Shown: positions 3,193-51,944, numbered from the stretch's first letter. The stretch is 63,189 nt of DNA from an uncultured Alphaproteobacteria bacterium (GCA_944390895.1 CALXRQ010000006.1:1-63189); one strand, 5' to 3'. Notes: generated from the letters alone by a model not told the origin. Translations and numbers: made by a program.

Positions 3193-4478
3193 CTGCACAA
3201 ATCTTCGATGATTTTGTTTAAAACCAACCGTCCGCTATCGGTTGCGCGGATGTTGCCGCCGTTGTCTTCGAGCAGTTTTTTTTGAAGCAGAATACGCAGG
3301 TTTTCCCGATTGACGAAAGCGTCGAAATCCATGCCGCAGTTATGTTTGAAACCTTGGCGGCTGATGCCTCTGTTCAGGCGCAGGCCCATTAAGACCAGTT
3401 CTTCCGCCCGCTCTTCCGGCGTAAGTTCTTCCATTATGCAGCGATGGGTCGAGGCAAAGATTTTTCCTTGGCTTTTGATGCGGCCGTGCGCTGCCGGGCC
3501 GATGCCGAGGTAGTCGTTTCCGGTCCAGTATATTTGGTTGTGAACGGATTCAAAACCGGAGCAGGCGTAGTTTGATATTTCATATTGATTGTAATTGCGA
3601 GTACGCAAAAAGGCGTTGGTAAAATCGTACATTTCCGCGGCTGCGTTTTCCTCCAGCGGTTTAACGCCTTTTTTATGAAAAACCGTTCCCTCTTCAATGG
3701 TCAGCTGATACATTGACAGATGTTTAAAGCCGAAAGACGCGGCCTGTTTTATTTCTTCCTGCCATTGTTTTAAGCTTTGTGCGGGGCGGGCATAGATGAG
3801 GTCAATCGAATGGTTGTCAAACAGCTTTAAGACGTCTTCCATGGCCTGATAAGCCTGTTGCAGATTATGCGTGCGGCCGAGGAATTTTAAATCCGCGTCG
3901 TTTAGAGCCTGAATGCCGAGCGAAAGGCGGTTGACGCCGGCGTTTTTCAGGTCTTGAAAAAGTTTCGGTCGGCCGCTGTTCGGATTGGCTTCCAGCGAGA
4001 TTTCGACCTGCTGCGAAAGTTTCCAGCGGCGGGCGATATGATTAATAATTTTTTCAATGTTTTGCGGCGCAATTAAGGACGGTGTGCCGCCGCCGAAAAA
4101 AATGCTGGTGACGCATTGATCTCCCGTATACTGATAATAAAAGTCAAGTTCTTTAAGATAGTCTTCAATAATTTCATCTTGCGGTACGTCTTTTTTGACC
4201 TTGCTGAAAAAATCGCAATACGGGCATTTGCTGAGGCAGTAGGGCCAGTGAATGTAAATTCCAAAGGGTAAATCCGTTTTAAGGGGAAGCTTCGGCAAAA
4301 ATCCGGTGCTCGTGTCCTCACGTACGTTTATGTACGCTGCGGGACTGCGCTCCGTGTTTGTTACCGCATCTTCCTCCTTAAAACGAATTTCTGAAGAGGA
4401 AAGCTTCGGTAAAAATCCGGTGCTCGTGTCCTCACGTACGTTTATGTACACTGCGGGACTGTGTTTCATGTTTGTCAC
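3189..4478 (-). CDS. hemW: Radical SAM heme chaperone HemW (HemN-like) with an N-terminal RPE-like repeat extension
   Basis: YIHWPYCLSKCPYCDF (CxxxCxxC), FFGGGTPS and HNQIYW motifs. Start is uncertain: GTG 4478 lies 8 nt after a perfect TAAGGAGG; alternatives are ATG 4469, TTG 4526, or GTG 4690 if the frameshift at 4525-4528 is repaired. Confidence 0.9.
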   Translation of the reverse strand: MTNMKHSPAVYINVREDTSTGFLPKLSSSEIRFKEEDAVTNTERSPAAYINVREDTSTGFLPKLPLKTDLPFGIYIHWPYCLSKCPYCDFFSKVKKDVPQDEIIEDYLKELDFYYQYTGDQCVTSIFFGGGTPSLIAPQNIEKIINHIARRWKLSQQVEISLEANPNSGRPKLFQDLKNAGVNRLSLGIQALNDADLKFLGRTHNLQQAYQAMEDVLKLFDNHSIDLIYARPAQSLKQWQEEIKQAASFGFKHLSMYQLTIEEGTVFHKKGVKPLEENAAAEMYDFTNAFLRTRNYNQYEISNYACSGFESVHNQIYWTGNDYLGIGPAAHGRIKSQGKIFASTHRCIMEELTPEERAEELVLMGLRLNRGISRQGFKHNCGMDFDAFVNRENLRILLQKKLLEDNGGNIRATDSGRLVLNKIIEDLCS

Positions 4479-4680
4479 CGCGTCTTCCTCCTTAAAACGA
4501 ATTTCTGAAGAAGGAAGCTTCGGCAAAATCCGGTGCTCGTGTCCTCACGTACGTTTATGTACGCTGCGAGACTGCGCTCCGTGTTTGTTACCGCATCTTC
4601 CTCCTTAAAACGAATTTCTGAAGAGGGAAGCTTCGATAAAAGTCCGGTGCTCGCGTCCTCACGTACGTTTATGTACGCTG
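4270..4680. repeat. Tandem array (about 3.5 copies, 114/114/113-bp period) of an RPE1-like palindromic element
   Basis: AAGCTTCG recurs at 4287, 4401, 4515 and 4628. The first unit, 4270-4390, is a full imperfect hairpin (AAATCCGTTTTAAGGGGAAG ... CTTCCTCCTTAAAACGAATTT). Minus-strand translation NTERSPAAYINVREDTSTGFLPKLP resembles the RPE1 peptide. Confidence 0.93.
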
Positions 4681-4690
4681 TATTTTTCAC
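4475..4690 (-). pseudogene. Repeat-encoded 71-aa ORF; frameshifted 5' portion of hemW
   Basis: GTG 4690 follows GGAAAG just after the hslU stop. It translates as RPE-like repeats until the A4 run at 4525-4528 (A5 in copies 1 and 2). Its TGA overlaps GTG 4478 (GTGA). Confidence 0.55.
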
Positions 4691-4709
4691 GCCGTCTTCT
4701 TTCCGGAAA

Positions 4710-6017
4710 CTATAAGATAAATTTGGACAGGTCGGTTGCCTGTGTGAATTTCATCAGTTTTTGCTCAACGAATTCGGCGGTAATAACCTCTTTCTGGCCG
4801 CTGCGGTCAGAAGCGTTGAAGCTGATGTCTTCCAGCAGAATTTCCATGACCGTATGCAATCTGCGGGCACCGATGTTTTCGACATTTTCGTTGATTTCAA
4901 CCGCAATGTCGGCAATCTTGTCGATGGCGGCCTTTTCAAATTCGATGTCAAAATTTTCGGTCTTGAGCAGGGCGGTATATTGTTCAATCAGATTGGCTTC
5001 GGGTTCAGTCAATATACGAACAAAATCTTCATGCGTCAGGGCTTTCAGCTCAACGCGAATCGGCAGTCTTCCCTGCAATTCCGGCAAAAGATCCGAAGGC
5101 TTGGCCAAATGAAAGGCGCCCGAACAAATAAACAGTATGTGGTCGGTTTTAACCATGCCGTATTTGGTCGTGACGGTAGTGCCCTCAATCAGCGGCAACA
5201 GGTCGCGCTGAACGCCTTCTCGGGAGACGTCGCCGCGGGTGTTTTCCGATTTGCCGGTGATTTTATCTATCTCGTCAATAAAAACGATACCGTCGTTTTC
5301 GACCGCTTCAATGGCGGCTTTGACAATCTGGTCATTGTCCAAAAGCTTGTCGCTTTCTTCGGCAATCAGGATGTCGTAAGCTTCGCCGACTTTCATTTTT
5401 TTGGTTTTGTATTTGGTTCCGGAAGCGCCGAGCAGGTCTCCGAGGCTGATCATTCCCATTTGGGCGCCGGGCATGCCGGGGATGTCTATGGTCGGCATTG
5501 AGGCGTTGGAATTGTCCAGCACGCTGATTTCGATTTCCCGGTCATTCAACTGGTTCTCCCGCAGAAGTTTACGAAACTTTTGTTTGGTCTCGTCGCTGGC
5601 ACTCAAGCCGACCAAAGCTTCCAGAACGCGTTCTTCTGCCGCAAGTTCGGCTTTGGCGGTAACGCTTTTGCGCATTTCCTTGCGGGTATTGTTCAAAGCA
5701 ATTTCAACCAAATCGCGGATGATGCTTTCGACGTCTCTTCCGACATAACCGATTTCGGTAAATTTGGTTGCTTCCACCTTTACAAAAGGCGCTTTGGCTA
5801 GTTTTGCCAGCCGGCGCGAAATTTCGGTTTTTCCGACGCCGGTCGGTCCCACCATCAGAATGTTTTTGGGGACGATTTCTTCCCGCAGATGCGCATCTAG
5901 CTGCATTCGCCGCCAGCGATTGCGTAAAGCGACGGCCACAGCCTTTTTGGCTTCGTTTTGGCCAATGATATACCTATCCAGTTCGGAAACAATTTCGCGA
6001 GGACTATAAACTGCCAT
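4710..6017 (-). CDS. hslU: ATP-dependent protease ATPase subunit HslU
   Basis: [14 protein letters not shown] pore loop, DEIDKI, C-terminal DLSKFIL. Confidence 0.98.
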
Positions 6018-6024
6018 TTTAAGA

Positions 6025-12379: not shown

Positions 12380-12871
12380 ATGGAAGTAATTCTTTTAGAA
12401 CATGTAGAAAAACTCGGTAAAATGGGCGACAAAGTAACCGTAAAGAACGGTTATGCCCGCAACTACCTGCTGCCAACCCGCAAAGCTCTGCGCGCAACCG
12501 AAGCCAATGTTGCTTATTATGAGAAACAGAAGGCTGAACTGGAAGCCCACAACAAGGCTCTGCTGGACGAAGCGACAAAGATTGCCGAATCCCTGAAAGG
12601 CTACAGCGCGGTTCTGATCCGTCAGGCTGCCGAAACCGGCCAGTTGTACGGTTCCGTAACCATCCGTGATATTGCCGCCGCGGTTAAAGCCAGCGGTTTT
12701 GCCGTTGAACGCAAACAGGTATATCTGGAAAACGCTATTAAAGATCTGGGTGTTTATGAAGTTAAACTCAATCTGCATCCGGAGGTCAGCCAGACCATTC
12801 TGGTTAACGTAGCGCGTACCGAAGACGATGCGGCCAAACAGGCAAAATTATATCATTCTGCGGAAAACTAA
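12380..12871 (+). CDS. rplI: 50S ribosomal protein L9
   Basis: MEVILLE..V..LGKMG..VKNGYARNYLLP; LYGSVT. Confidence 0.98.
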   Translation: MEVILLEHVEKLGKMGDKVTVKNGYARNYLLPTRKALRATEANVAYYEKQKAELEAHNKALLDEATKIAESLKGYSAVLIRQAAETGQLYGSVTIRDIAAAVKASGFAVERKQVYLENAIKDLGVYEVKLNLHPEVSQTILVNVARTEDDAAKQAKLYHSAEN

Positions 12872-12971
12872 TACAGAAATTGCGGATAACCGGCTCGGTC
12901 ATGTCCTTTTATGTACATTCCGCTCGCCGGTTTTCTTATTTCTTATTATTTTTCTCACGATTGATATGATT
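12846..12971. repeat. About 126-bp imperfect palindrome overlapping the rplI 3' end (RPE-like family member)
   Basis: The left arm AATTATATCATTCTGCGGAAAACTAATACAGAAAT..AACCGGC pairs with GCCGGTT..ATTTCTTATTATTTTTCTCACGATTGATATGATT; apex TCATGTCC-ttttat-GTACAT. Confidence 0.7.
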
Positions 12972-12987: not shown

Positions 12988-13025
12988 AAAAAAACACTCC
13001 CGATGATTTTCGGGAGTGTTTTTTT
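12988..13025. terminator. Bidirectional terminator between rplI and nrdB
   Basis: A7-CACTCCCGA-tgattt-TCGGGAGTG-T7. Confidence 0.85.
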
Positions 13026-13040
13026 ATCTGCTTGCAGTCT

Positions 13041-14098: not shown

Positions 14099-16378
14099 TT
14101 AACCGGCGCAGCTGACACATTCTTCCTTGGCGGCGGAAGAGCCGTCTTTTTGAATGGTGCGGGTATAATAAAGGGTTTTGATGTCTTTTTTCCAGGCGTC
14201 CATTATGGTGTCATAGATGTCTTTGGCACGGATGTCGCGGTTGAGATTATACATCAGTTCGACGGAAATGCCGGTGTCTATCCATTTGTTAATACGGGAC
14301 ATCACTTCAATAATCTTGCGTTGGTCGATATTGCGGTTTTCCTGATAAAACCAAAACTTGTCACGGATATAAGGCGGGCAGTTCGGAATGCTGCCTTTGC
14401 CGTGGGTCTCGACGAAGAACTTGCTGTAAATCGGCAGAACCGAAGCGGTGCAGCCCTGAATGAGAGAGGAACTGGTATTCGGCGCAATAGCGGATATCTG
14501 CGAGTTGCGGATGCCGTATTTGGCAAGGTCGGCAAAAATTTTGTTCCAGCGGTCTTTATATTTGGAATTGGCGTTGAACCATATCTGGCGTTTGCCGAAA
14601 ATCAGGCCTTTGCTCCAATCCGAACCTTCATAGGCGCCGAAAGTTCCTTTTTTTTGCGCGGCGTCAATGCTGGCCTGAATATTGTAAATAGCCATTTTTT
14701 CAAACAAATCGTCTACGAAGTCGGCAGAGTTGATATAGGGAACGTTGTTTTTGGCAAGCATGTCGGCCAGTCCCATAGCGCCAATGCCGATGGTGCGGTA
14801 ACGTTGATTATGCAGGCTGCCTTCGGGAACCGGCACGGTGGTGAAGTCAATGGCGTTGTCCAGAATGCGAACCGAGGTGCGGCAAACGCTTTCCAGTTCC
14901 CGGTCATCGTCAATGTTGGCAAGATTGACGGAAACCAGATTGCAGACGTGTACAAGTCCGTCATAGGCTTCAGAAATTATTTTACCGTCTTCAATGCGTT
15001 TGGGGCTGAATTTGGTCGGGCGGACATTGCTGTGAGATTCGGTGCAGAGGTTGGTGCCGACAATAACGCCATCATGCTTGTTGGGATTATAGCGGTTCAG
15101 GGTGTCTTTGAAGGCAATGTAAGGCATTCCGGTTTCAACCTGAGATTTCATCAGCCGTTTTAACAGCTCTTTGGCATCAACAAACTTAAACATTTCAAGT
15201 TTGCCGAAACCCGCGTCAAAATAAAGCTGATTATAAAGGTTTTCAAACTCTTCTCCCCAAAGGTCGGCAATTTCTCGGCCGTATTTTTCCCGGACTTCGT
15301 GCGGGTCAACCAACAGCCATTTTTCGTTGTTTTCGACTTTTTTCATAAACAAATCGGGGATGACGACCTGAGGGAAAATGTCATAAGCTTTCATGCGCTG
15401 GTCGCCGTTTTCGGTACGGAGTTCAAGAAAGTTTTCAATGTCCAGATGCCACATATCCAGAGATACGGTAACGGCGCCTTTGCGTTTGCCCTGCTGGTTG
15501 ACGGCCACGGCGGTGTCGTTGATAATGCGAATCCAGGGAATGACGCCGCCGGAAGAATTTTTGATGCCTTTGATACGGGCGCCTTTGCAGCGAACGCGCG
15601 AGATGTTGACGCCAACCCCGCCGCCGAATTTGGATATGGCGGAAATCTGGTCGATAACGTAAAAAATCGAATCGCGGTTGTCGTCCATAACAGTAATGAA
15701 ACAGGAACTCAGGTTGCCGTTGGGTCGGCGCAGGTTCATCAGCAGCGGTGTGCCGAGCGAGATTTTGCGGTCGGCAAGTTTTTCATAAGTGTCTTTGACC
15801 TGACTCATGCGAATGCTGCGATCTTCGTTTTGCTCAATCAGCAGAGCAATAGTCAGGAACATTTCCTGCGGCAGCTCGACAATGCGGTCGCCGAATTCGC
15901 AAAGGTAGCGTTTAATGAGCAGATTGATGCCGGCATAATCATAGACCAAATCAAAAGCCGGGTTGATGAATGATGCGGCCTGTTTTATTTCTTCGGGATT
16001 GTATTTTTCGGTGATGACGGGGTCATATACGCCGTTGGCGACGGCAAAATCCAAGAACTTTTCATAGTCGTAGGGAACGGCCTGATTGGTGCGGCGGTCG
16101 TTTTTAACATCTTTATACAAGTCGAAAAGGCGCAGGCGGCCGGCGGCGTTCTTCCAGTCGGGTTCCAGAACCGAGGTCAGATTCAACGCGTTTAGGATAA
16201 GAGCCTTGTTGATTTCGGAAGCCGGCATACCGTTTTTAAAAAAGTTCGGAATCGTTTCCAAAAGTTTGTTTTTATCAAGTTCGAATCCGGCGAGAGCGCG
16301 CTCGACGGTAGCCGTGATTTTAGCCTGGTCAAAGGCCGCTTCAGCACCGTTTCTCTTGGTGATTTTTTGATTTTCCAT
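14099..16378 (-). CDS. nrdA: Class I ribonucleotide reductase alpha subunit with N-terminal ATP cone
   Basis: ITKRNG ATP-cone start, SSCF, NLCTE, VCNL, APNTSSS, TLYY, C-terminal CVSC. Confidence 0.96.
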   Translation of the reverse strand: MENQKITKRNGAEAAFDQAKITATVERALAGFELDKNKLLETIPNFFKNGMPASEINKALILNALNLTSVLEPDWKNAAGRLRLFDLYKDVKNDRRTNQAVPYDYEKFLDFAVANGVYDPVITEKYNPEEIKQAASFINPAFDLVYDYAGINLLIKRYLCEFGDRIVELPQEMFLTIALLIEQNEDRSIRMSQVKDTYEKLADRKISLGTPLLMNLRRPNGNLSSCFITVMDDNRDSIFYVIDQISAISKFGGGVGVNISRVRCKGARIKGIKNSSGGVIPWIRIINDTAVAVNQQGKRKGAVTVSLDMWHLDIENFLELRTENGDQRMKAYDIFPQVVIPDLFMKKVENNEKWLLVDPHEVREKYGREIADLWGEEFENLYNQLYFDAGFGKLEMFKFVDAKELLKRLMKSQVETGMPYIAFKDTLNRYNPNKHDGVIVGTNLCTESHSNVRPTKFSPKRIEDGKIISEAYDGLVHVCNLVSVNLANIDDDRELESVCRTSVRILDNAIDFTTVPVPEGSLHNQRYRTIGIGAMGLADMLAKNNVPYINSADFVDDLFEKMAIYNIQASIDAAQKKGTFGAYEGSDWSKGLIFGKRQIWFNANSKYKDRWNKIFADLAKYGIRNSQISAIAPNTSSSLIQGCTASVLPIYSKFFVETHGKGSIPNCPPYIRDKFWFYQENRNIDQRKIIEVMSRINKWIDTGISVELMYNLNRDIRAKDIYDTIMDAWKKDIKTLYYTRTIQKDGSSAAKEECVSCAG

Positions 16379-30933: not shown

Positions 30934-30966
30934 ATAGTGTTGCTTTAATATAAAAGGTGAAAAAAT

Positions 30967-31344: not shown

Positions 31345-31351
31345 CGTTTTA

Positions 31352-31387
31352 AAACAACGGCCGAAATTGTGCTTTCGACCGTTTTTT
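31352..31387 (+). terminator. Probable terminator after rbfA
   Basis: AACGGCCGAAA-ttgtgc-TTTCGACCGTT followed by a T-run. Confidence 0.55.
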
Positions 31388-31442
31388 ATTGACGAATCCG
31401 GCTTTTTACTTATGCTGGGGTTGAGTTTTTTTAGAGGAAGAT

Positions 31443-32369
31443 ATGGGACGTCGAAAAAAAGGCGATGATGTCAGCGGCTGGCTGATTATAGACAAACCCC
31501 GGGATATGGGGTCGACCGAGGTTGTGAATCTGACCCGGCGGTTATTCAATGCCCGGAAGAACGGGCATACGGGAACGCTGGATCCTTTTGCCACCGGTGT
31601 GCTGCCGATTGCTTTCGGCGAGGCGACCAAAGTTATTCCTTTTGTTACCGACGGTCCGAAAGAATATGAATTTGTCATTCAATGGGGACAGGCGACTTCT
31701 ACCGGCGATACTGAAGGCGAAATTATTGGCAAAACGGAAAAGATTCCATCCCGGGATGAAATTCTGCGGGTTATCCCCGATTTTCTCGGATCAATTAAAC
31801 AGGTGCCGCCGGCTTATTCGGCGATAAAAATTGACGGCCGCAGGGCTTATGATTTAGTACGGCAGGGAGAAGCGGTCGACATTCCGGAACGAATCGTGGA
31901 GGTTTATTATCTGGAGCTGTTGGAAGAACTTGCCGATAATCAGGCCCGGTTTAAAGTAGGGTGCTCCAAAGGAACTTATGTGCGCACGTTGGGGCAGGAT
32001 TTGGCTCTGGCACTCGGCTCTTTAGGCTATCTGCGGGAGCTCAGGCGCACAAAATGCGGTAATTTTACGCTTGAAGATACGATTTTGCTGGAAAATTTGA
32101 AAAATATAGTGCATATTGAAGATCTGAGAAAAGTTTTGCTTCCGGTAATAACTTCTCTGCGCGACATCGCGGAGTTAGCTGTAACCGAAGCTGACGCCGC
32201 TAAACTTCGTCAAGGACAGGCAATATCTCCGCGGGCATATCAGGATCAGAACCTGAGTGAAGGCGCGGCTTTTGCCACTTGCAACGGGGAGTTGACGGCA
32301 ATATTGCGAATCGAGGAGAAAAGAATCTCTCCCGAACGCGTTTTTAATTTTAACAACGGTGCCGAATAG
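31443..32369 (+). CDS. truB: tRNA pseudouridine(55) synthase
   Basis: GHTGTLDPFATGVLP, QVPPAYSAIK, CSKGTYVR. Confidence 0.97.
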   Translation: MGRRKKGDDVSGWLIIDKPRDMGSTEVVNLTRRLFNARKNGHTGTLDPFATGVLPIAFGEATKVIPFVTDGPKEYEFVIQWGQATSTGDTEGEIIGKTEKIPSRDEILRVIPDFLGSIKQVPPAYSAIKIDGRRAYDLVRQGEAVDIPERIVEVYYLELLEELADNQARFKVGCSKGTYVRTLGQDLALALGSLGYLRELRRTKCGNFTLEDTILLENLKNIVHIEDLRKVLLPVITSLRDIAELAVTEADAAKLRQGQAISPRAYQDQNLSEGAAFATCNGELTAILRIEEKRISPERVFNFNNGAE

Positions 32370-32399
32370 TTTCGGTACAGCATTAAAAGGAAAATATTG

Positions 32400-32669
32400 A
32401 TGTCGATTACAAATGAAAAAAGACAGGAATTGATTAAGGCTTATGCCATTAATCCGAACGATACCGGTTCTCCGGAAGTTCAGATTGCTATTTGGACTGC
32501 ACGTATTAACAGCCTGATTGAGCATTTTAACACTCATCCGAAAGACAAACATTCTCGTCTGGGTTTGATGAAGATGGTTTCCCGCCGCCGTCACCTTTTG
32601 GACTATCTGAAAGGCAAGAGCGAGAGCCGTTATCAGGAAATCATTAAAAAGCTGGATCTGCGTAAGTAA
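32400..32669 (+). CDS. rpsO: 30S ribosomal protein S15
   Basis: [32 protein letters not shown]. Confidence 0.98.
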
Positions 32670-32907
32670 TCCGGCGGGAACTGTTTTTGATGAGCTTGTC
32701 CGAAACCGAAATTTGCAGTCTGCTTTTCCGCGTGTTGGAAAATATGCGTCGGGTTTGCGCCTTGCGTTTGGGTGCGGCCGGTTCGGTTGAAAACAATTCC
32801 GCAAATGTCCGGTCGGAACTGACGGCCGGTAAATGAATTTTGGGAAGTGCGGGGCTGACTTGCTCCGCATTCCTTTTAAAATCCTCAAATGACTGAGGTG
32901 AGGAAAT

Positions 32908-32967
32908 GGACTTAACTCTTAGGCAAGGACAATGTGTCAGATTTGTTTTTGCCTAAGAGGTAAGTCC
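32908..32967 (+). promoter_or_regulatory. Long pnp 5'-leader hairpin (probable RNase III/autoregulation element)
   Basis: GGACTTA-a-CTCTTAGGCAAGGACAA ... TTGTTTTTGCCTAAGAG-g-TAAGTCC, 36 nt upstream of pnp. Confidence 0.65.
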
Positions 32968-33003
32968 GAAGAATTTAGACATATGATTATGAAAGGATAA
33001 AAT

Positions 33004-35130
33004 ATGATAGATTTTAAAGTGTCCCGCAAAGAGATGGATTGGGGCGGACGCAAGCTGGTGCTGGAAACCGGCAAAATGGCCAGACAGGCCAACGGCGCCG
33101 TGGTGGCGAGCTATGGCGAAACCGTTGTTATCGCGACGGTTTGCGCGGCCAAGGAAGCCAAAGCCGATCAGGATTTCTTCCCGTTGACGGTTAATTATCA
33201 GGAGAAATATTATGCGGCCGGCAAGGTGCCGGGCGGTTTTATGAAAAGAGAAGGCAAACCGTCCGAACGCGAAGTTTTGATCTCGCGCCTGATTGACCGT
33301 CCGATCCGTCCGCTGTTTCCGGATGCTTTCAAAAACGAAGTTCAGGTTGTCTGCACGGTTTTGTCACATGACAAGCAGACGGATTCAGACATTGTTTCCA
33401 TGATTGCGGCATCCGCCGCTCTGACCATTTCGGGTGTGCCGTTCCTGGGGCCGATTGCGGCGGCAAAAGTCGGTTACAAAGACGGTCAGTATATTTTGAA
33501 CCCGACCATTGAGCAAATGAAAGATACGCAGCTGGAATTGGCCGTAGCCGGAACCAAAGAAGGCGTTCTGATGGTTGAATCCGAAGCGCAGGAACTTTCC
33601 GAAGAAGTTATGCTCGGCGCGGTTATGTTCGGTTTTGAGAATTTCCAGCCGGTTATCAAGATGATTGAAGAGCTGAATGCCGAAGCCGGCAAAGAGCGTT
33701 GGGAAACGCCGACGTTCCCGAAAGAGTTCGACGAGCTTTATGCCCGAGTTGAAAAAGAATTCCGTGCCAAATATGAAGAAGCTTTCAAAGAAACCGATAA
33801 GCTGAAACGCGGTACCAATTTGGGACAGTTGGCAGAAGAAGTTAAGGCGACGATTGATGCCGAAAACGAGATTGAAGTCCGCTATATCGGCGATGTTATC
33901 GAAAAGCTGATGCACAGTGTTATGCGCGAAGGCGTTTTGTCAACCGGCCGCCGCATTGACGGACGCGATACCAAAACCGTCCGCCCGATCGAATGTCAGG
34001 TTGACGTTTTGCCGATGGCTCACGGTTCGGCGCTGTTTACCCGCGGCGAAACGCAGGCTCTGGTCGTTACCACGCTGGGTACCGGCGAAGACGCTCAGGT
34101 TGTTGACGGTCTGCTTGACGAATATAAAGAAGATTTTATGCTGAATTACAACTTTCCGCCGTTTTCAGTCGGCGAGTGCGGTCGCATGGGCAGCCCGGGA
34201 CGCCGCGAAATCGGTCACGGCAAGCTGGCTTGGCGCGCCATTCATCCGATGATGCCGAAAAACAAGGATACGTTCCCTTATACGGTCCGCGTGGTTTCCG
34301 ACATTATGGAATCGAACGGTTCGTCATCAATGGCAACGGTCTGCGGTACGACAATGTCCTTGCAGGCGGCGGGTGTTCCGCTGGAAAAACCGGTTGCCGG
34401 TATTGCCATGGGGCTGATTAAGGAAGATGACGGCCGGGTAGCCATCTTGACCGATATCCTCGGCGATGAAGACCACCTCGGCGATATGGACTTTAAGGTT
34501 GCCGGTACAAAAGACGGTGTAACCGCTTTGCAAATGGATATTAAAATTACGTCCATTACCAAGGAGATTATGGAAAAGGCTTTGGCTCAGGCACATGAGG
34601 GTCGTATTCATATTATGGGTGAAATGGCCAAAGCCATCAGCGAACCGCGTCCTCATGTTTCCGATAAGGCGCCGCGTATTGTCGCCATTAAGATTCCGGT
34701 TGACAAAATCCGCGAGGTTATCGGTTCCGGCGGTAAGGTTATTCGTGAAATTACCGAAAAGACCAACTGCAAGATTGATATTTCCGACGACGGCGTTATC
34801 AAGATCGCTTCAATGAAGAAAGAAGACGGCGACGCCGCTTTGGAGTGGATTATGGGTATTGTGGCCGAACCGGAAGAAGGCGTTATCTACAAAGGCGTTA
34901 TTACCAAGATTATGGACTTTGGCGCATTTGTCCGCTTTCTGGGCACGACCGAAGGTCTGGTTCATATTTCGGAAGTTAAGAACGAACGCATTGCTTCGGT
35001 TTCCGACTTCTACAAAGAAGGCGACACCATGTGGGTCAAATGTCTGGGAACAGATAACCGCGGCAAGATTAAGCTGTCGGCCAAACGGGTTAATCAGGAA
35101 ACCGGCGAAGATCTTGAAACCGCAAAATAA
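33004..35130 (+). CDS. pnp: Polyribonucleotide nucleotidyltransferase (PNPase)
   Basis: [48 protein letters not shown] and S1 domains. Confidence 0.99.
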
Positions 35131-35172
35131 TGTTGTTTTCTAACGTTTGAGTTTTAAGATAATATTTCAAAG

Positions 35173-35205
35173 AAAAGCACTCTGCCAAAACAGAGTGCTT
35201 TTTTT
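35173..35205 (+). terminator. Terminator after pnp
   Basis: AAAAGCACTCTG-ccaaaa-CAGAGTGCTTTT followed by a T-run. Confidence 0.85.
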
Positions 35206-35356
35206 GTTTCTAACCGTTGTTTTGAGATTGACCGAATCGGAAGCATTTCTTTATGGTTCCTATGTATTATTTCTTTTTATGACTAAGAATTGTGTTTTTT
35301 GCTTTCAGGTCTTGCCTGATTTGCATGGATATATGTTAACTAAAAAATATATACGT

Positions 35357-35647
35357 ATGGAAACTATTATTATGCCATGGCTGGTTTTGGCCGGTTTGCT
35401 GGGTTTTTGCATTTGTAAGATATGGTATGCTTATCGTTGCGCAGTCAGGGAGCGAAAAAGGAACGGTTTTACCGTCGTAGCCCGAATAAAGAAAGAAGAC
35501 AATTCCTTATGGTTATGCAAGTTTTTCCTTTGGGGCGACCATGTTGGCTTTTTTCGCAAAAAACCGTCTTCGGACAGAGTGCAGGCCTGGGTTGTCTGTT
35601 ATGACAAGAATTTGGGCATGTATGAGCTGGAGGAGCTCGGCAGGTGA
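35357..35647 (+). CDS. Small hypothetical membrane-anchored protein (paralog of 35776..36117)
   Basis: N-terminal TM followed by a beta-rich domain; has its own terminator; start chosen at ATG 35357. Confidence 0.6.
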   Translation: METIIMPWLVLAGLLGFCICKIWYAYRCAVRERKRNGFTVVARIKKEDNSLWLCKFFLWGDHVGFFRKKPSSDRVQAWVVCYDKNLGMYELEELGR

Positions 35648-35682
35648 AAAAAGGCGTTTTCCGAAAAGGGAAACGCCTTTTT
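35647..35682 (+). terminator. Terminator
   Basis: AAAAAAGGCGTTTTCC-gaaaa-GGGAAACGCCTTTTT. Confidence 0.8.
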
Positions 35683-35775
35683 GCGGGTATTTTATTGTTT
35701 GACAAGACTCGCATTTTTGTCTAAAACAGTATTTATCACATTATATTATTTTATAAACAATTAAATTTTAAGCTT

Positions 35776-36117
35776 ATGGTAAAAGTTTTAACCGAATTTT
35801 TGGCGGAGAACTGGACTGTTCTTTGCTGCGTCGTTTTTTTTGTGTTTATATCTTTGGTAACGGTTTTAATGTGCCGCAAGAAGAATATTGCAATCTATGT
35901 AGACGCGGAGATTGTTAAAATTGATGACGGCGTTTGCGAGTGCGTTTTCTGGCAGGCCGGAAGAAAAGTGGAAGGATTTATTTGTCCCTGTCTTGATGAA
36001 TTTCGCGTCGGTGACATATTGGAATGCGAAGTCGGCACACAGGACCAGGAATCCGGTTTGTGGGAACTTTTGCCGCTGGCGGTCGTCAGCGGAGAAAATT
36101 TCAAAAAGAAATTATAA
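35776..36117 (+). CDS. Small hypothetical membrane-anchored protein
   Basis: N-terminal TM, Cys-containing beta-rich domain; TTGACA-17-TAAAAC promoter at 35699-35727. Confidence 0.65.
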   Translation: MVKVLTEFLAENWTVLCCVVFFVFISLVTVLMCRKKNIAIYVDAEIVKIDDGVCECVFWQAGRKVEGFICPCLDEFRVGDILECEVGTQDQESGLWELLPLAVVSGENFKKKL

Positions 36118-36184
36118 GAAGACAGAGGGCGTTTTTAGATTTGCCATTTTATAATGATTGTTTCCTTCAGCCCTCGGAGGGATG

Positions 36185-36222
36185 AAGGTTCTTTTCTGTG
36201 AAGAAAGGAACCTTTATTTTTT
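36185..36222 (+). terminator. Terminator
   Basis: AAGGTTCTTTTC-tgtgaa-GAAAGGAACCTT followed by a T-rich tail. Confidence 0.65.
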
Positions 36223-36273
36223 TGTTTAAAAATCCTTGAAATATATAAATATCTGGTGTAGAAAACAAGTGTT

Positions 36274-36300
36274 TACGGCGGCACCCCTGGAGGCCGTCGT
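36274..36300 (+). promoter_or_regulatory. Putative rplY (L25) leader hairpin
   Basis: ACGGCGGC-acccctggag-GCCGTCGT upstream of rplY. The CACCCCTGGAGGC core resembles, from recollection, the alphaproteobacterial rplY leader. Confidence 0.5.
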
Positions 36301-36333
36301 GAGTTTTTAACCGAATGAAAAGGATTTTATAAA

Positions 36334-36624
36334 ATGTCTGATATTACATTTAATGCAGAAAAACGTGAGAAAGCAGGTAAGGGGGCAGCTCGTGCATGTC
36401 GTCGTGAGGGTCGTGTTCCTGCCGTAATTTATGGCGGCAACAAAGAAGCCGTCATGATCAGCCTGAACCCGGTTGAACTTGAAAAGGCTTTGGATATGGT
36501 CGGCTTTTATGACGCCGATATCGAAATCGTTCTGGATGGCAAAAAACACAGCGTCGTTTGTCAGGACGTGCAGTTCCACCCGGTTTCTGATGCGCCGATC
36601 CACGTTGATTTTCTTCGTAAATAG
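36334..36624 (+). CDS. rplY: 50S ribosomal protein L25 (short, single-domain form)
   Basis: GKGAARACRREGRVPAVIYG...QFHPV...HVDF. Confidence 0.95.
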   Translation: MSDITFNAEKREKAGKGAARACRREGRVPAVIYGGNKEAVMISLNPVELEKALDMVGFYDADIEIVLDGKKHSVVCQDVQFHPVSDAPIHVDFLRK

Positions 36625-36649
36625 TTTTAAGTTATAGCAAATGTTTTAA

Positions 36650-36697
36650 GAGCGAAAAAATTCAGGCCGTTCGGCCGCAGAGTTTTTTCGCTTTTTT
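36650..36697 (+). terminator. Probable terminator after rplY
   Basis: GAGCGAAAAAA ... TTTTTTCGCTT followed by a T-run. Confidence 0.6.
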
Positions 36698-36728
36698 GTG
36701 ATTTGTTTCAAAGAGAGATTTTTATAAG

Positions 36729-37301
36729 ATGTTTTTGATTGTGGGTTTGGGTAATCCCGGTGCGGAGTATGACAAAACAAGGCATAATGTCGGTTTTATG
36801 GCGGCAGACGTCATTGCGGCGAAGTATGGTTTCGGTACGGCTCGCGCCAAGTTTGACGGACTGATTTCCGAGGGCGGCATCGCCGGAGAAAAAGTTTATC
36901 TGCTCAAGCCGCAGACTTATATGAACCTGTCGGGAAACGCAGTGGTGAAGGCGGCAATTTTTTATAAAATTCTGCCGCAGAATATTATTGTCATTCATGA
37001 CGATATGGATTTGCCGGTCGGTAAAGTTAAGGCCAAAACCGGCGGCGGTGCAGGCGGTCATAACGGATTGAAGTCAATTGACGCTGCGGTGACGCCGAAT
37101 TATCACCGTATTCGAATCGGCGTCGGACATCCGCAAGGGAGCGGAGAAGCAGTGGTGAATCATGTGCTTTCGCGTTTTTCCAAGACAGATGCGGAAGTGA
37201 TTGACAGCGAACTGGAGCTGATTGCCGAGCAAGTTGGCGTTTTGATTAAAGACGGCATGGAAGCATTTTCGGGCCGTCTCGGAATGCTGCTGAAGAAATA
37301 A
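36729..37301 (+). CDS. pth: Peptidyl-tRNA hydrolase
   Basis: VGLGNPG..Y..TRHNVGF, KPQTYMNLSG, HDDMD, GGHNGLKS. Confidence 0.98.
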   Translation: MFLIVGLGNPGAEYDKTRHNVGFMAADVIAAKYGFGTARAKFDGLISEGGIAGEKVYLLKPQTYMNLSGNAVVKAAIFYKILPQNIIVIHDDMDLPVGKVKAKTGGGAGGHNGLKSIDAAVTPNYHRIRIGVGHPQGSGEAVVNHVLSRFSKTDAEVIDSELELIAEQVGVLIKDGMEAFSGRLGMLLKK

Positions 37302-37371
37302 AGCTTGAAAATGCACCCGGGATAGGCTAAAAGACTCCTCAAGCAAATACTTAATTTTGAGGAGTTTTTTT

Positions 37372-38481
37372 ATGGGTTTTAATTGCGGAATCGTGGGTTT
37401 GCCGAATGTGGGCAAATCGACTTTGTTTAACGCTTTGACGCAAACCATTGCGGCGCAGGCGGCAAATTTTCCTTTTTGTACGATTGAGCCGAATACCGGA
37501 CGCGTTGCCGTGCCGGACAAGCGTCTGGACAAACTGGTCGAGATGGTGCAGCCGAAGTCGGTGGTGCCGACGCAGCTTGAGTTTGTGGATATTGCCGGTC
37601 TGGTTAAGGGCGCTTCTAAAGGCGAAGGGCTGGGGAACCAGTTTTTGGCCAATATTCGTGAGACTGACGCGATTATTCATGTTTTGAGGTGTTTTGAAGA
37701 TGACAATATTACGCATGTCGAGGGCTCGGTCGATCCGATCCGCGATGCCGAAATCGTTGAAACCGAATTGATGATTGCCGATCTGGATTCATTGGAGAAG
37801 CGTTTTGATCAGGCTCAGAAAAAAGCCAAGGGCGGCGATAAAGAGGCTATTGTCAATGTTGCGGTCATGGGGCCGGTCATTGAAGCGTTGAAGGCCGGAA
37901 AACCGGCCCGGGTTGCAGCGCCGGATGCCGCAAACAAAGATGCGGTCAAAGCATATAAGATGTTGCAGCTCTTGACGTCAAAGCCGGTTTTGTATGTTTG
38001 CAATGTTGATGAGAATTCTGCGGCGGAAGGAAATGAGTTTTCGAAACGGGTTTTTGAAAAAGCCGCAAAAGAACATGCCGGAGCCGTGGTTATTTCCGCG
38101 GCAATCGAATCGGAAGTTGCACAGTTGGAAGCGGAAGAGGAAAAGAAAGAGTTTCTGGCTTCTCTGGGGTTGGAGGAATCCGGTTTGTCCAAGATTATCC
38201 GCGCCGGTTATGACTTGCTGGGACTGCAAACGTATTTTACCTGCGGGCCGAAGGAAGTTCGCGCCTGGACGTTTTTGAAGGGTTCCAAAGCTCCGCAGTG
38301 TGCCGGGATTATTCATTCGGATTTTGAACGCGGGTTTATTCGGGCTGAGACCATATCTTATGACGATTTTGTTGCTCTGGGTGGTGAACAGGCCTGCAAA
38401 GAAGCCGGCAAAATGCGCTCCGAAGGCAAGGATTATACAGTTCAGGACGGGGATATATTAGAGTTTCTTTTTAACGTTTAA
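37372..38481 (+). CDS. ychF: Obg-family ATPase YchF
   Basis: [42 protein letters not shown] domain. Confidence 0.98.
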
Positions 38482-38696
38482 AACGCCTCTCCGTTCTGTG
38501 TAAACCTAATACAGATATAGTGGATAAATGGTTCGGTTATGTATCTTTATATACACGCCCTCGCCATTTTCCTAAAATCTTATTATCTTTCTCACAGAAC
38601 GGAGGCGTTATTTTTTATTTTAGGTACTTTTCCCCTGAACTTCTGTTATTTGTCTCATTCTCCGTGTTTTTTTCTGAAAAAATATTTAGCCAAAAT

Positions 38697-38725
38697 TTGA
38701 CAACAATAGAAATTTGTGGTAAAAG
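38697..38725 (+). promoter_or_regulatory. Sigma70-type promoter
   Basis: TTGACA-17 nt-TAAAAG upstream of the orphan gene at 38786. Confidence 0.45.
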
Positions 38726-38785
38726 AATCTTTATCTAAGCAGATATTAAGAAATAATTTTGTTTTACAATTAAATTTTAGCGCAT

Positions 38786-39304
38786 ATGGGATTAACAGAA
38801 AGAGAAGAACAAGTACAAGATCAGATTATCGAAGTATTTTCTGATTTGAGTGGTTTACGCGGCGGCATTGAAGGCGATACGGTCGTCTATGAGAAAAACG
38901 CCATGGGCTTGTTCATCAAACTTTGCGAAGTTTTTGCGGTGAAGGCTCATTTCCAGCACGGTTTGGTGACCATTGAAGATTACAGTCACCATTTTCTGTG
39001 GCTTTTGGACAAGAAAGCGGAACAGCTGCGTCTTTTTTATCCGGGGCTGCAAGCTTTTGTTCAGGAAAAAGTCGGTGTCTGGTATGATTTGGACGAGATT
39101 TTGTTCGGCGAATATCTTCCGGTGTCGGAAGAGCCGGTACAGCGCCTTCGCGAGGTGATGAGCTACGAACTAAAGCTCGGAAAGCTTAAAAACCAAATCC
39201 GCAACCGGTATGGGTATTTCCGAGACAACACGGATTTTTCTCATGCGCGGACGTTGAGAAAAATAGGAGAAATAATATTCTGGCCACATTACCGGGCAGA
39301 ATAA
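38786..39304 (+). CDS. Hypothetical helical protein (possibly related to the 57.4-59.1 kb trio)
   Basis: 172-aa ORF with its own promoter and terminator; no recognised family. Confidence 0.7.
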   Translation: MGLTEREEQVQDQIIEVFSDLSGLRGGIEGDTVVYEKNAMGLFIKLCEVFAVKAHFQHGLVTIEDYSHHFLWLLDKKAEQLRLFYPGLQAFVQEKVGVWYDLDEILFGEYLPVSEEPVQRLREVMSYELKLGKLKNQIRNRYGYFRDNTDFSHARTLRKIGEIIFWPHYRAE

Positions 39305-47464: not shown

Positions 47465-49040
47465 TATTTTTCCTTTTTTTTGATATCATACACATAATGT
47501 CAGAAATATTCAATGCTCCGGTTAGTTTAGCCGCAATGCCGAAAGTTGCAACACCCAAAACGCACAAACCCACAAAAAACGGTATTTTCAGAGCGTATCC
47601 GAGCGCGAGCCAGTTGCCGTAAAGGCGATTGAGCGCAAACTCTCCGCCGATGAGTACGATGCCCATAATCAGTGAGCTTACGGTGATTTTGACGATTTTC
47701 TTCACCAGTTCGGGACCGAAAGTCCAAAAACCGCGTTTTTTCAGTCCGCGTACATACTGGTACAATGATACAAATGCGGCGACAGTGGTGGCCGAAGCAA
47801 TACCGACATGGCCGAACGGTTTCATCAGCAGAAGAGAAAAAATAAGGTTGGCGGCAAAGACGACCATACTGTATTTTACGGGCGTCCGCGTGTCGCCGCG
47901 GGCAAAGAAGTTCGGCGTCAGGGCTTTAACCAGAACATAAGCCGGCAGTCCTACGGCATAGGCAATGACGGCCAGCGACGTCATATGGGTTTCGTAAGCG
48001 CCGAAACGTCCGTGCTGGAACAAAATGTTGATTATCGGTTCGCTTAAGACAATCAATGCAACTGCCGCCGGAATTGACAACAGTGCGCCATATTCGCAGG
48101 CCTTGTCCTGAACGCGGCAGGCCTGTTCATGTTCTTCGGCCTTGAGATGGCGGCTTAAAACCGGCAGGATGGCAACGCTGATGGCCGCGCCGACAACGCC
48201 CAGCGGCAGCTGTTGCAGACGATTGGCGTAATATAGCCAGGAAATGGCTCCGGTGCCGACCAGCGAAACGATAATGGTGTCAACGACCATGTTTATCTGA
48301 TAAATTCCGGCGCCGAGCACGCCCGGGGCAATGCGTCTGAACAGCGTTTTTATTTCGGGATCTTTTATTTGCGTCGCAATATCGTACCGGGGACGGACAA
48401 CAACCTTTTGGCAGCGCAGAAAATAGGCCAGCCATGCGATTTCCACCAGACCGGCCGCGGTGACGCTGATGGAAATGCCGTGTGCCGGCGTGATGCTGAA
48501 CGGAACAAAGACAAATACGGCCAGAATCATCATCAGGTTTAAGATTACGGGCGCGGCGGCGGGCGCGGCGAATTTTCCGAGCGAATTCAAAATGCCCGAC
48601 TGGAACGAAACAATGGAAATGAACAACAGAAAAGGAAAGGTTATTCTCGACAGGGTCGTCGCCAGTTCGATTTTGCCGGGGTCGTCGGCGAAGCCGGGCG
48701 CCATCAGTTCGACAACCCAGGGCATACAGAATTCCATAATGACGACAAAAACGGTTAAAAAGAAAGCCAGAACGGAGATGGCGGAAGATGCAAAGCGCAC
48801 AGCTTCCTTTTCCCCGTCCGAGACGATTTTTTGAGAAAGCATCGGCACAAAGGCGGAGGTGAAAGCGCCTTCGGCAAACAGGCTGCGGAACAGGTTAGGC
48901 AGCTTGAAAGCAACAAAAAAGGCGTCGGCAACCATGCCCGCACCCAGGAAATTTGCCAGAACCATGTCCCGTGCAAAACCCGTTACCCGGCTCACAAGCG
49001 TAAAACCTCCGAAAGTCGCGATGGATTTGAATAAAGACAT
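47451..49040 (-). CDS. murJ: Lipid II flippase MurJ (MviN)
   Basis: TLVSRVTGFARD, DAFFVAFKLPNLFRSLFAEGA, YYANRLQQLPLG. Confidence 0.97.
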   Translation of the reverse strand: MSLFKSIATFGGFTLVSRVTGFARDMVLANFLGAGMVADAFFVAFKLPNLFRSLFAEGAFTSAFVPMLSQKIVSDGEKEAVRFASSAISVLAFFLTVFVVIMEFCMPWVVELMAPGFADDPGKIELATTLSRITFPFLLFISIVSFQSGILNSLGKFAAPAAAPVILNLMMILAVFVFVPFSITPAHGISISVTAAGLVEIAWLAYFLRCQKVVVRPRYDIATQIKDPEIKTLFRRIAPGVLGAGIYQINMVVDTIIVSLVGTGAISWLYYANRLQQLPLGVVGAAISVAILPVLSRHLKAEEHEQACRVQDKACEYGALLSIPAAVALIVLSEPIINILFQHGRFGAYETHMTSLAVIAYAVGLPAYVLVKALTPNFFARGDTRTPVKYSMVVFAANLIFSLLLMKPFGHVGIASATTVAAFVSLYQYVRGLKKRGFWTFGPELVKKIVKITVSSLIMGIVLIGGEFALNRLYGNWLALGYALKIPFFVGLCVLGVATFGIAAKLTGALNISDIMCMISKKRKNNVQA

Positions 49041-49943: not shown

Positions 49944-49971
49944 GAGTAAAAAGGAAATTTGGGCGTAAGAT

Positions 49972-50004: not shown

Positions 50005-50013
50005 ATTTGACGT

Positions 50014-51831
50014 TTATATGACGTCCGGTTTGGCGCGTTTGCGCTGCAACGGATCAAGAATGCGCTTGCGCAGACGCAGGCTTTTGGGCGTAACTTCCAG
50101 AAGTTCGTCAGCCTGAATGTATGACAAACCTTGTTCCAGCGACATTTTGCGCGGCGGAATGAGGTCAATGGCGTCATCTTTGCCGGCGGCGCGGATGTTG
50201 GTGAGCTGTTTGGATTTGGTCGGGTTGACTTCCAAGTCGTTGGGCTTGGTGTGTTCGCCGATAATCATACCGACATAAACAGGTGAATTGGGTTCAATAA
50301 ACATCGGGCCGCGGTCCTGGAGTTTCCATAAGGAATAGGCGATGGCGGTACCCGCTTCGGATGAAATCAGAACGCCGTTGCGGCGGCCTTCAATTTCTCC
50401 TTTGTAGGGTTCGTAAGCCTTAAAGATGCGGTTCATAACGCCGGTGCCGCGGGTGTCGGTCAGAAATTCGGAATGGTATCCGATCAGGCCGCGCGAGGGT
50501 GCGTTGAAAATCAAACGAACCTTATTGCCGATCTGCGAGGGAATCATATCCTGCATTTCTGCGCGGCGCTGGCCGAGTTTTTCAACGACGGCGCCGGAAA
50601 ACTCTTCGTCGACGTCAACGACAACTTCTTCAATCGGTTCCAGTAGATTGCCGTTTTCGTCTTTGTGCATCAAAACGCGCGGGCGGGAGATGGAGAGCTC
50701 GAAACCTTCGCGGCGCATGGTTTCAATCAGAACGCCGAGCTGCAATTCGCCGCGGCCGGCCACTTCAAAGGAGTCCGTCGAATCGGTGCGGGAGATTTTA
50801 AGCGCAATGTTGCCTTCGGCTTCTTTGCACAGACGATCCCAAATCATGCGAGAGGTTACCTTGTCGCCTTCGCGTCCGGCCAAAGGAGAATCGTTGATGG
50901 AAAAAGTCATGGCCAGTGTCGGGGGATCAATCGGCTGGGCGGGAATGTGTTCGTTGACGTCCAGCGCGCAAATTGTGTCGGCGACGGTGCCTTTGACAAT
51001 GCCGGCAACGGCAATGATGTCGCCGGCATGGGCTTCTTCCAAAGCTTCGCGGTTTAGGCCGCGGTAAGCCAAAATCTTGCTGATGCGGACTCTTTCAAGC
51101 TCTTTGTTTTCGGCATTCAGAACCTTGACCGTGTCATTGACTTTGACGCTGCCGCTTTGTACTTTGCCGGTCAGCAGGCGGCCGATAAACTTATCGGCTT
51201 CCAAGGTTGTGGCCAGCATGGAGAAAGGTTTGTCCGGCTCGCATTTCGGAGACGGGACATAAGAGCAAATCAATTCAAACAGCGGGGTCAGGTCTTTTTT
51301 TTCGTCGTTCATATCCTTAACGGCCCAGCCATTGCGTCCGGAAGCGTATAATACCGGAAAATCCAACTGTTCGTCATTGGCGTTCAGGCTGACGAACAAG
51401 TCAAAAATTTCATCCAACACTTCGTCGACGCGGGCATCGGCTTTGTCGGCCTTGTTGATGACGACAATCGGTTTTAAGCCGAGCTTAAGTGCTTTTCCGG
51501 TAACGAACTTGGTTTGCGGCATCGGGCCTTCGGAAGAGTCTACCAGCAAAACAACACCGTCAACCATGGACAGGATGCGTTCGACCTCGCCACCGAAATC
51601 GGCGTGTCCGGGGGTGTCGACAATATTGATATGCGTGCCTTTCCAGTTTACGGAAGTGCATTTGGACAAAATGGTGATACCTCTTTCGCGTTCCAGATCA
51701 TTGCTGTCCATAACGCAGGTTTCAACCTTTTGATTGTCACGGAAGGTGCCGCTCTGTTTCAAGAGTCCGTCAACCATTGTGGTTTTGCCGTGGTCGACGT
51801 GGGCGATTATTGCAATATTCCTTAATTCCAT
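50014..51831 (-). CDS. typA: Translational GTPase TypA/BipA
   Basis: RNIAIIAHVDHGKTT, MDSNDLERERGITI, DTPGHADFGGEVER, GRGELQL, LLEVTP. Confidence 0.99.
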   Translation of the reverse strand: MELRNIAIIAHVDHGKTTMVDGLLKQSGTFRDNQKVETCVMDSNDLERERGITILSKCTSVNWKGTHINIVDTPGHADFGGEVERILSMVDGVVLLVDSSEGPMPQTKFVTGKALKLGLKPIVVINKADKADARVDEVLDEIFDLFVSLNANDEQLDFPVLYASGRNGWAVKDMNDEKKDLTPLFELICSYVPSPKCEPDKPFSMLATTLEADKFIGRLLTGKVQSGSVKVNDTVKVLNAENKELERVRISKILAYRGLNREALEEAHAGDIIAVAGIVKGTVADTICALDVNEHIPAQPIDPPTLAMTFSINDSPLAGREGDKVTSRMIWDRLCKEAEGNIALKISRTDSTDSFEVAGRGELQLGVLIETMRREGFELSISRPRVLMHKDENGNLLEPIEEVVVDVDEEFSGAVVEKLGQRRAEMQDMIPSQIGNKVRLIFNAPSRGLIGYHSEFLTDTRGTGVMNRIFKAYEPYKGEIEGRRNGVLISSEAGTAIAYSLWKLQDRGPMFIEPNSPVYVGMIIGEHTKPNDLEVNPTKSKQLTNIRAAGKDDAIDLIPPRKMSLEQGLSYIQADELLEVTPKSLRLRKRILDPLQRKRAKPDVI

Positions 51832-51837
51832 CGTATT

Positions 51838-51944
51838 ATTTCTTTCCTAAATGGTCGTCATGTCATGATTTTGATAACCTCGTGTACCGTTTTGTACACG
51901 TCGGTATCAAAATTATTTCCAGCACAGCCATTTATCAAAGAAAT
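51838..51944. repeat. 107-bp imperfect palindrome in the typA 5' region (RPE-like family member)
   Basis: ATTTCTTT/AAAGAAAT, TAAATGG/CCATTTA and ATTTTGATA/TATCAAAAT pairings; apex TCGTGTAC-cgtttt-GTACACG. Confidence 0.8.

Follow-up and report, generated by a model that had tools for sequence, protein, structure and literature searches.

ERIC sequences carry a conserved central inverted repeat. They are imperfect palindromes of ~127 bp that are found in tens of copies in transcribed spacers near gene ends and sometimes within genes, have no known transposase and are reported to affect mRNA stability (PMC3184786, PMC10969869). REP, BIME and REPIN sequences are also extragenic hairpin repeats, which are often organized in arrays and are thought to be active in termination or mRNA stabilisation (PMC3733652). 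Two further types are known from Alphaproteobacteria, namely the Rickettsia palindromic elements (RPEs), palindromes of ~105-150 bp that also occur in frame inside genes (PMC10969869), and the strictly or mostly intergenic CIR repeats of ~110 bp (PMC3184786, PMC10969869). Furthermore, terminator-like interspersed repeats have an intrinsic-terminator-like fold and lie near gene 3' ends (PMC3184786). The element that we describe resembles such repeats in size, fold and habitat; it resembles ERIC, with which it was compared by description only, in being an imperfect palindrome of ~125 nt that is present in tens of copies near gene ends. It occurs at six loci of a stretch of 63,189 nucleotides from an uncultured Alphaproteobacteria bacterium (GCA_944390895.1, CALXRQ010000006.1:1-63189), and "the window" refers to this whole stretch in the following. 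We consider it probable, at roughly 0.6, that these palindromes form one lineage-wide family which is spread rarely by strand-specific, fork-linked insertion and is kept in the form of terminator-like hairpins.

The genome under study (G000) comprises 1.68 Mb on 56 contigs. A covariance model, R1, was built from an alignment of 20 copies and used to scan it. With the best 150 of 293 candidates scored and E <= 1, R1 gives 41 matches, three of which are reverse-strand echoes. They merge into 25 loci, and the six of the window are all located on the plus strand:

4268-4703, plus strand: tandem array of three full units of 113-114 nt (about 4268-4392, 4394-4506 and 4508-4619) and a last unit (4639-4703) that ends just past the apex; it lies between hemW (3189-4259, minus strand) and hslU (4710-6017, minus strand), antisense to both, with its 3' end 6 nt from the hslU stop codon.
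12846-12971, plus strand: single complete element directly behind rplI (12380-12871, plus strand), whose reading frame enters the element by 26 nt.
30807-30933, plus strand: single complete element in sense orientation between infB (stop codon TAG at 30806-30808) and rbfA (30967).
38484-38609, plus strand: complete element 2 nt behind the stop codon of ychF (37357-38481, plus strand), with the apex GTAT-N6-ATAC.
38623-38673 (about), plus strand: right-arm fragment of a second element with a T-run end, read by comparison with other right arms.
51833-51954, plus strand: single element that abuts the start codon of typA/bipA (50014-51831, minus strand) and is antisense to this gene.

An earlier note, made from the sequence of the window alone, had described four of these loci by a shared apical motif, GTAC-N6-GTAC, and the motif is indeed present in all four, at 4322-4335 with three further tandem copies, at 12903-12916, at 30863-30876 and at 51884-51897. 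The apex of the second of these, GTCC-N6-GTAC, has one mismatch; this element is also found in the related genome G003, and a longer array is present in G005. The element at 38484-38609, which was absent from the list of that note, is conserved in G003 as well. The window contains seven matches to GTAC-N6-GTAC, whereas 100 dinucleotide-preserving shuffles have a mean of 0.23 and a maximum of 2, so that none reaches seven; four of the seven lie in the single tandem array with its period of 114 and 3.5 copies. Because GTA and TAC are rare here, the chance level is lower than the one match per 63 kb that had been estimated before. The excess extends to the entire genome, where 39 sites, mostly at the tips of ~125-nt hairpins, compare to one to nine for each of the other spacings from 0 to 14. 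Among the 38 exact sites scanned, 30 sit in hairpins with at least 30 enclosing pairs, including four that represent a second GTAC pair 10 nt onward within the same element. One match in the window is outside the family and looks like a chance occurrence:

47750-47763, no strand: GTAC-N6-GTAC inside an open reading frame (ORF), without a centred hairpin and without an R1 match.

GTAC-specific restriction-modification was considered as the cause of the apex and dropped: GTAC occurs 1803 times against 6534 expected for independent and identically distributed letters, yet the ratio of observed to expected is 0.87 under a second-order Markov model. Under the same model, CTAG (0.46) and GATC (0.55) are the most under-represented tetranucleotides of the genome.

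Folds of 126 nt around the sites share one architecture: the outer stem is followed by a small internal loop, by two to three further stems with fixed bulges and by a 5-bp apical stem that closes a loop of 6 nt. The element is 118-128 nt long and forms a hairpin of ~50 bp. Its apical stem YGTAC/GTACR is near-invariant and flanked by unpaired TCA and CT, and the loop is T-rich and mostly 6 nt in length. In 126 distinct copies from G000 and 12 other genomes, the columns of the first half of the apex are T (123), C (106), A (119), Y, G (111), T (125), A (123) and C (109), and those of the second half G (108), T (125), A (124), C (109), R, C (112) and T (107), which corresponds to 85-99% conservation and makes the apex the most conserved part of the element. 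A central GTAC-N3-9-GTAC, the version with N6 and the full TCAYGTAC...GTACRC are present in 90, 76 and 71 of 119 distinct copies, respectively. The R1 matches also comprise the apex variants GTAT...ATAC, CTAC...GTAG and GTAG-N5-CTAC, loops of 5 nt and one copy without the apex; the compensatory ones among these variants indicate that the tip stem is kept by pairing as well as by sequence.

The alignment of 20 copies, in which invariant columns are confined to the apex, yields 28 pairs with RNAalifold, 24 of them with double changes. Across the 126 copies, standard pairs are found in 91.4% of 3417 pair cells, compared to 61.2% in shuffles and 32-53% with slid partners, and double-change cells number 1058 compared to 341 in shuffles; neither value is reached by any of 500 shuffles. 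As the copies are related to each other and were aligned by fitting to R1, the independence suggested by these figures is too high. The covariance-model search, which had been proposed in the earlier note, finds the family throughout the genome and in related genomes, with stems that covary. The stems had been described there as not alignable, which is right for the four window loci, as these are of different subtypes, but genome-wide the stems form alignable subfamilies and a single covariance model finds all of them. It had also been considered that each hairpin could be a different known cis-regulatory RNA. However, Rfam 15 has no match in the window at gathering scores, and its best score on five element loci is 28.8 bits against a gathering score of 72, for a plant microRNA precursor.

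The outer stem of 9-10 bp is locus-specific, and an A-run borders the 5' end and a T-run the 3' end. Among 108 distinct full-length copies, 67 have a 5' run of at least four A and 63 a 3' run of at least four T (86 with at least three), compared to 13 and 20 in the reverse controls; the consensus of the 5' end is TAAAA-N4-5-GTA, and that of the 3' end is the T-run. The unpaired positions are pyrimidine-rich on the forward strand, and to this we attribute that, in 100 of 119 copies, the lower fold energy is obtained for the reverse strand. Wobble pairs were tried as a strand signal and rejected, as G:T outnumbers A:C by 113 to 68 on the 28 consensus pairs but not over the whole arms.

The 5' end of the element is usually flush with the stop codon, mostly TAA, of a co-oriented gene. 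Sixteen of the 25 G000 loci start between 26 nt before and 4 nt after the stop-codon end of an upstream gene on the same strand, with ORF calls that are crude at these loci. A second tally covered 79 loci (86 examined, seven dropped at locus edges) beyond the 15 short G000 loci, which are contained in the 25-locus count of G000 itself. In 54 of the 79 loci, a sense ORF with a length of 80 codons or more stops within 40 nt of the 5' end, and in 42 it does so within 7 nt; a convergent ORF stops within 40 nt of the 3' end in 13 loci and within 7 nt in only two. Among the 42 flush stop codons, 34 are TAA, compared to 56% of 1247 G000 ORFs. The elements thus have the layout of an intrinsic (Rho-independent) terminator, with a hairpin behind a stop codon and a T-run after it, and the hairpin of ~50 bp is far longer than usual. 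An R1-type element of G003 (locus L054, 1246-1370) follows tRNA-Gly and starts right behind the CCA, yet a linkage to tRNA genes was rejected, as no R1 match is found within 4.5 kb of any of the 41 tRNA genes of G000. The same tRNA-Gly(CCC) junction in G000 (C26:1244-1625) harbors a 380-bp insert that repeats the tRNA 3' end. One of the 25 G000 loci is inside a gene, uvrC (C32:13923-15893), which contains one full in-frame unit (14490-14613) and a left-arm stub and is thereby ~55 codons longer than in G005 and G011. Across six genomes of the genus, uvrC has 0, 0.2, 1.2 or at least two in-frame units of 123-124 nt: two of 123 nt in G012, one plus in G001, only the stub in G003 and none in G005 and G011, where the gene is uninterrupted in contrast to the four others. 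The position flush with stop codons, the A-run and T-run ends and the in-frame copy in uvrC are additions to what had been noted before.

In 99 of 106 loci overall, the G-rich strand carries the forward strand of the element, which is the one with the T-rich loop, namely in 25/25 in G000 (16/16 contigs), 20/20 in G003, 28/31 in other genera and 26/30 in distant families; only 56% of the ORFs of G000 are located on the G-rich strand. By the usual rule, this strand is presumed to be the leading one, and its sequence is also that of the lagging-strand template. Loci beside genes of the opposite strand, such as 4268 and 51833 of the window and one on contig C40, keep the orientation defined by the skew, and altogether nine of the 25 G000 loci follow the GC-skew strand though their neighbouring genes are opposite. 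Thus, the polarity follows the replichore and not the neighbouring gene. The statement of the earlier note that the hairpins occur in both orientations is therefore correct only relative to the neighbouring genes, since all six window loci are on the plus strand and the orientation is fixed to the GC-skew strand. The GC skew of G000 is strong, with an absolute value of 0.07-0.16 on all 16 contigs examined.

Relatives, which were searched with the TypA protein of the window, are recorded as uncultured Alphaproteobacteria of gut and rumen. Among 36 genomes of the same taxonomic family, 35 have R1 matches, and so do all 12 genomes examined from the same genus and 5 of the 24 further families of the class; since at most 58 candidates were scored for each of these genomes, the counts of R1 matches are lower bounds. 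The family member without a match, for which 58 candidates were considered, is 99% complete. When 150 candidates were scored instead, five genera had 10-58 matches each at E <= 1e-6. In the distant families the A-run, the long hairpin and the T-run recur, and the YGTAC tip is kept in four of five, with loops of 4-8 nt.

No enzyme gene is located within the window, as had been noted before. Co-occurrence with an HUH/RAYT-type or other transposase, which had been proposed as a test, was not found for the families searched, since none of them tracks the element: among the 36 family genomes, of which 35 contain the element, the Y1 transposase (PF01797) is present in 14, TnpB (PF07282) over its cut-off in none, IS110 (PF01548) in four and reverse transcriptase (PF00078) in 15.

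Compared to the described repeats, several differences are obvious. ERIC-type copies end in inverted repeats and are flanked by TA (PMC3184786), whereas here the ends vary and the apex is fixed; moreover, the excerpts of PMC3184786 and PMC10969869 report neither a replication polarity nor a stop-flush rule for ERIC, and the host lineage is different. REPs are 20-40 bp long, have a GTAG or CGTC head and a cognate Y1 (PMC3733652), in contrast to 118-128 nt, GTAC at the apex and no Y1 that tracks the element. The terminator-like repeats, as excerpted from PMC3184786, differ in that the palindromes described here are flush with co-oriented stop codons only (42 versus 2 loci), are polar with GC skew and have a conserved apex. 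In-frame insertion in a protein-coding gene, by which RPEs are recognised, is found for the uvrC copy. However, nearly half of the first-reported RPEs are inside ORFs, whereas here it is one of 25 G000 loci and the rule is a position behind stop codons; this comparison with RPEs is by description. CIR repeats are defined by CcrM (GANTC) sites, and GANTC is not enriched here (1.97/kb in 119 elements versus 2.08/kb in the genome), which argues against a family of CIR type. The earlier note had proposed a REP- or MITE-like (miniature inverted-repeat transposable element) family. A real dispersed family of non-coding palindromic repeats is confirmed, but the MITE part is not: there are no shared terminal inverted repeats, as only the A-run and T-run are common to otherwise variable ends, and no parent insertion sequence was found among Y1, TnpB, IS110 and reverse transcriptase. 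In the literature compared, which was available in part, the combination of a conserved tip with variable ends, near-absolute replication polarity, stop-codon docking and no cognate transposase among the four families is not described for ERIC, REP, RPE, SPRITE or CIR. No published description of this family was found in a search of texts without their supplementary material. We conclude that it is an undescribed family of ERIC/REP/RPE/SPRITE-like repeats that has none of their defining sequence or enzyme features where these were tested.

The history of the elements can be followed by comparison of orthologous positions. All 11 genomes of the genus that could be read have an occupied infB-rbfA spacer, with differing subtypes and from one to at least three units; in G005 this spacer has one intact and one apex-deleted copy. 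The hslU-hemW array comprises 3.5 units in G000, 1.5 in G003, one in G011 and one decayed unit in G005. At the typA position, R1 detects an element of the same orientation in 16 of the 80 related species that were compared and one with a shifted position in about five others, and by eye ~35-40 of the 80 carry an element; the remaining sites have in part only the first 25-30 nt of the left arm and in part nothing past the ribosome-binding region. Between G000 and G003, whose flanks are 95-96% identical, the differences read (C32:1800, C32:3514, C8 and C18) represent changes in unit number or a shorter allele with element remnants, such as half an element against 2.5 units at C8. The C32:3514 spacer of ~125 nt is element-free in eight of 11 genus genomes read and filled in three, which implies true gains. 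In eight of 10 array cases, the intact unit comes first on the 5' side and the stub, often of the left arm, comes last; a simple reason is that a deletion extending leftward would take away the end of the upstream gene. Cores are 96-97% identical between unrelated loci (C5/C18 and C22:18769/C34) with different outer arms, and the outer 9-12 nt differ among copies with cores of 93-97% identity. Homogeneous arrays have the left outer arm restricted to the first unit, and at typA and infB one side of the outer stem is native functional sequence, which at typA is the complement of the ribosome-binding region in the left outer arm. A segment of ~420 bp is present three times in G000 (C22:19037-19459, C28:17522-17944 and C13:8534-8889), just downstream of the element loci in C22 and C28, and the C28 element looks as if units one and three of the C22 array had recombined.

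In the reading that we prefer, the family would spread rarely via a strand-specific step on single-stranded DNA at the replication fork, by which the element would come to lie directly 3' of an A-rich site that contains TAA. As 90% of the genome is coding, insertion of this kind would be harmless mainly right behind stop codons. The step would use a trans factor that reads the apical hairpin. Copies may then persist because a long hairpin between an A-run and a T-run can take the place of, or serve as, a bidirectional terminator or a stabiliser of 3' ends. Most turnover between close genomes would be due to deletion and unequal recombination, and the cores are probably homogenised by gene conversion. 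We infer both the mobility and a protein reading the apex, and single-strand, fork-coupled insertion is the best supported guess for how the element moves.

Several observations weigh against this reading. The empty sites with which insertion had been expected to show itself were not seen, as no polymorphic locus examined has a pre-insertion site; C32:1800, C32:3514, C18 and uvrC keep remnants or the phylogeny favours loss, and most differences read as deletions or unit loss. At the C11 locus, G003 is devoid of exactly 119 nt flanked by the 6-bp direct repeat TCTAAG, which contains the stop codon, but this difference can equally be explained by loss of one unit, because both alleles keep a left-arm stub downstream. 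The search for a cognate enzyme in the 36 family genomes, which was confined to Y1, TnpB, IS110 and reverse transcriptase, did not reveal any candidate. The leading strand was taken from GC skew on contigs without a mapped origin, and the mismatch types have no strand signal, with 199 G:T versus 213 A:C over the whole arms. Copies in the infB-rbfA spacer, inside uvrC and before typA are at places where termination is unexpected. The terminator role is putative: one metatranscriptome run (X1) and three runs of unstated kind span parts of 29000-39200, but the contigs over the elements have a depth of only ~1-6 and carry no information about RNA ends, strand or level.

The explanation that survives best next to it, and which we nevertheless regard as rather unlikely, is that of a cis-acting RNA, i.e., long terminator or 3'-stabiliser hairpins or RNase targets that evolve in place and are spread only by recombination or gene conversion. 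The strong covariation of the stems, the start at stop codons with A-run and T-run framing and the vertical inheritance at hslU-hemW, typA and infB-rbfA across species are all in line with it, and it would also account for the lack of a transposase among the four families and for changes between close genomes that are mostly deletions or shifts in unit number. However, the orientation follows the GC-skew strand against the neighbouring genes at 4268 and 51833 of the window and at nine of 25 G000 loci, which argues against an RNA role, as this would follow transcription. Similarly, flush contact is restricted to the 5' end and to co-oriented genes, although the element is symmetric enough for both directions, G:U pairs have no excess on either strand, and neither copies inside uvrC, arrays of at least three units nor sites that are empty in outgroups and filled elsewhere, such as the C32:3514 spacer, are expected from it.

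Quite improbable in our view is a mobile single-strand hairpin without an enzyme of its own that would select its target through base pairing, with an unrecognised or housekeeping enzyme reading the YGTAC apex as catalyst. The unit would then consist of the core and the right outer arm and would land on the lagging-strand template, just 3' of a site of TAAA type to which its own 3' arm is complementary, so that target and unit together form the outer stem. This would explain outer stems that are locus-specific yet paired, the left outer arm only in the first unit of an array, older decayed units 3' of intact ones and the stop codons of leading-strand genes as docking points. Two related accounts were rejected. 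Insertion into the loop of an old terminator fits the infB spacer, in which the same short outer stem surrounds differing subtypes in three genomes, but at C32:3514 the old mini-hairpin is still found downstream of the insert, which contradicts it. Copying of the left flank into the right arm at insertion would explain typA and infB but not C22:18769, where the right arm matches that of C34:2999 instead of the adjacent left flank. Loop insertion, flank copying and target choice by 3'-arm pairing thus each fit some loci and fail at others, and gene conversion of the cores could blur all three.

It is very unlikely that the hairpins are polar DNA signals kept by the host and read on one strand in replication or chromosome handling, for example as hairpins for priming or restart on the lagging-strand template or as orienting signals, with the apex as the site of a housekeeping protein. 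The polarity with GC skew at 99 of 106 loci, an apex that is conserved across families of the class, the pyrimidine-rich unpaired positions of the forward strand together with the lower fold energy of the reverse strand and the lack of a dedicated enzyme among the four families would fit such signals. Yet the copy number is low and variable, from one to at least 58 matches per genome, the 99% complete genome of the same family has no match among 58 candidates, loci are freely lost between close relatives, and the stop-flush rule has no place in this explanation. Single-strand transposition by Y1 enzymes of the IS200/IS605 family gives hairpins and replication-strand polarity. A classical REPIN- or MITE-type repeat moved by a Y1 (RAYT/IS200-type) transposase, which these two traits and one Y1 gene in G000 would support, is nevertheless largely refuted and most improbable, as this single gene (C29:24683-24955; L061 1504-1815) is a truncated IS200-type gene of 103 codons that matches the profile over 1-90 of 121 and lies 80 nt from a contig end with its own short, unrelated hairpin upstream, the IS200 ends of seven loci (six related genomes and G000) have unrelated end hairpins and no GTAC hairpin, G003, G005, G015 and G024 contain 31-58 elements without PF01797, which is present in 14 of 36 genomes against 35 of 36 for the element, and the element has no GTAG or CGTC head and is 125 nt instead of 20-40 bp long (PMC3733652).

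Concerning the surroundings of the window loci, a conventional short GC-rich hairpin, bounded by an A-run and a T-run, is located at ~12990-13030, 20 nt past the element at 12846-12971 and between the convergent rplI and the gene for the ribonucleotide reductase beta subunit. The gene at 50014-51831 was assigned to typA/bipA with 928.8 bits against a cut-off of 757.3; lepA was rejected with 168 bits against a cut-off of 533.9.

With R1, dozens of unannotated 125-nt blocks per genome can be annotated in a widespread uncultured gut lineage, blocks that break assemblies and lengthen or interrupt ORFs. If the polarity of the elements reflects insertion into single-stranded DNA, there would be a new enzyme to find, and if the elements terminate transcription, they would represent a transferable terminator module for a lineage with compact genomes.

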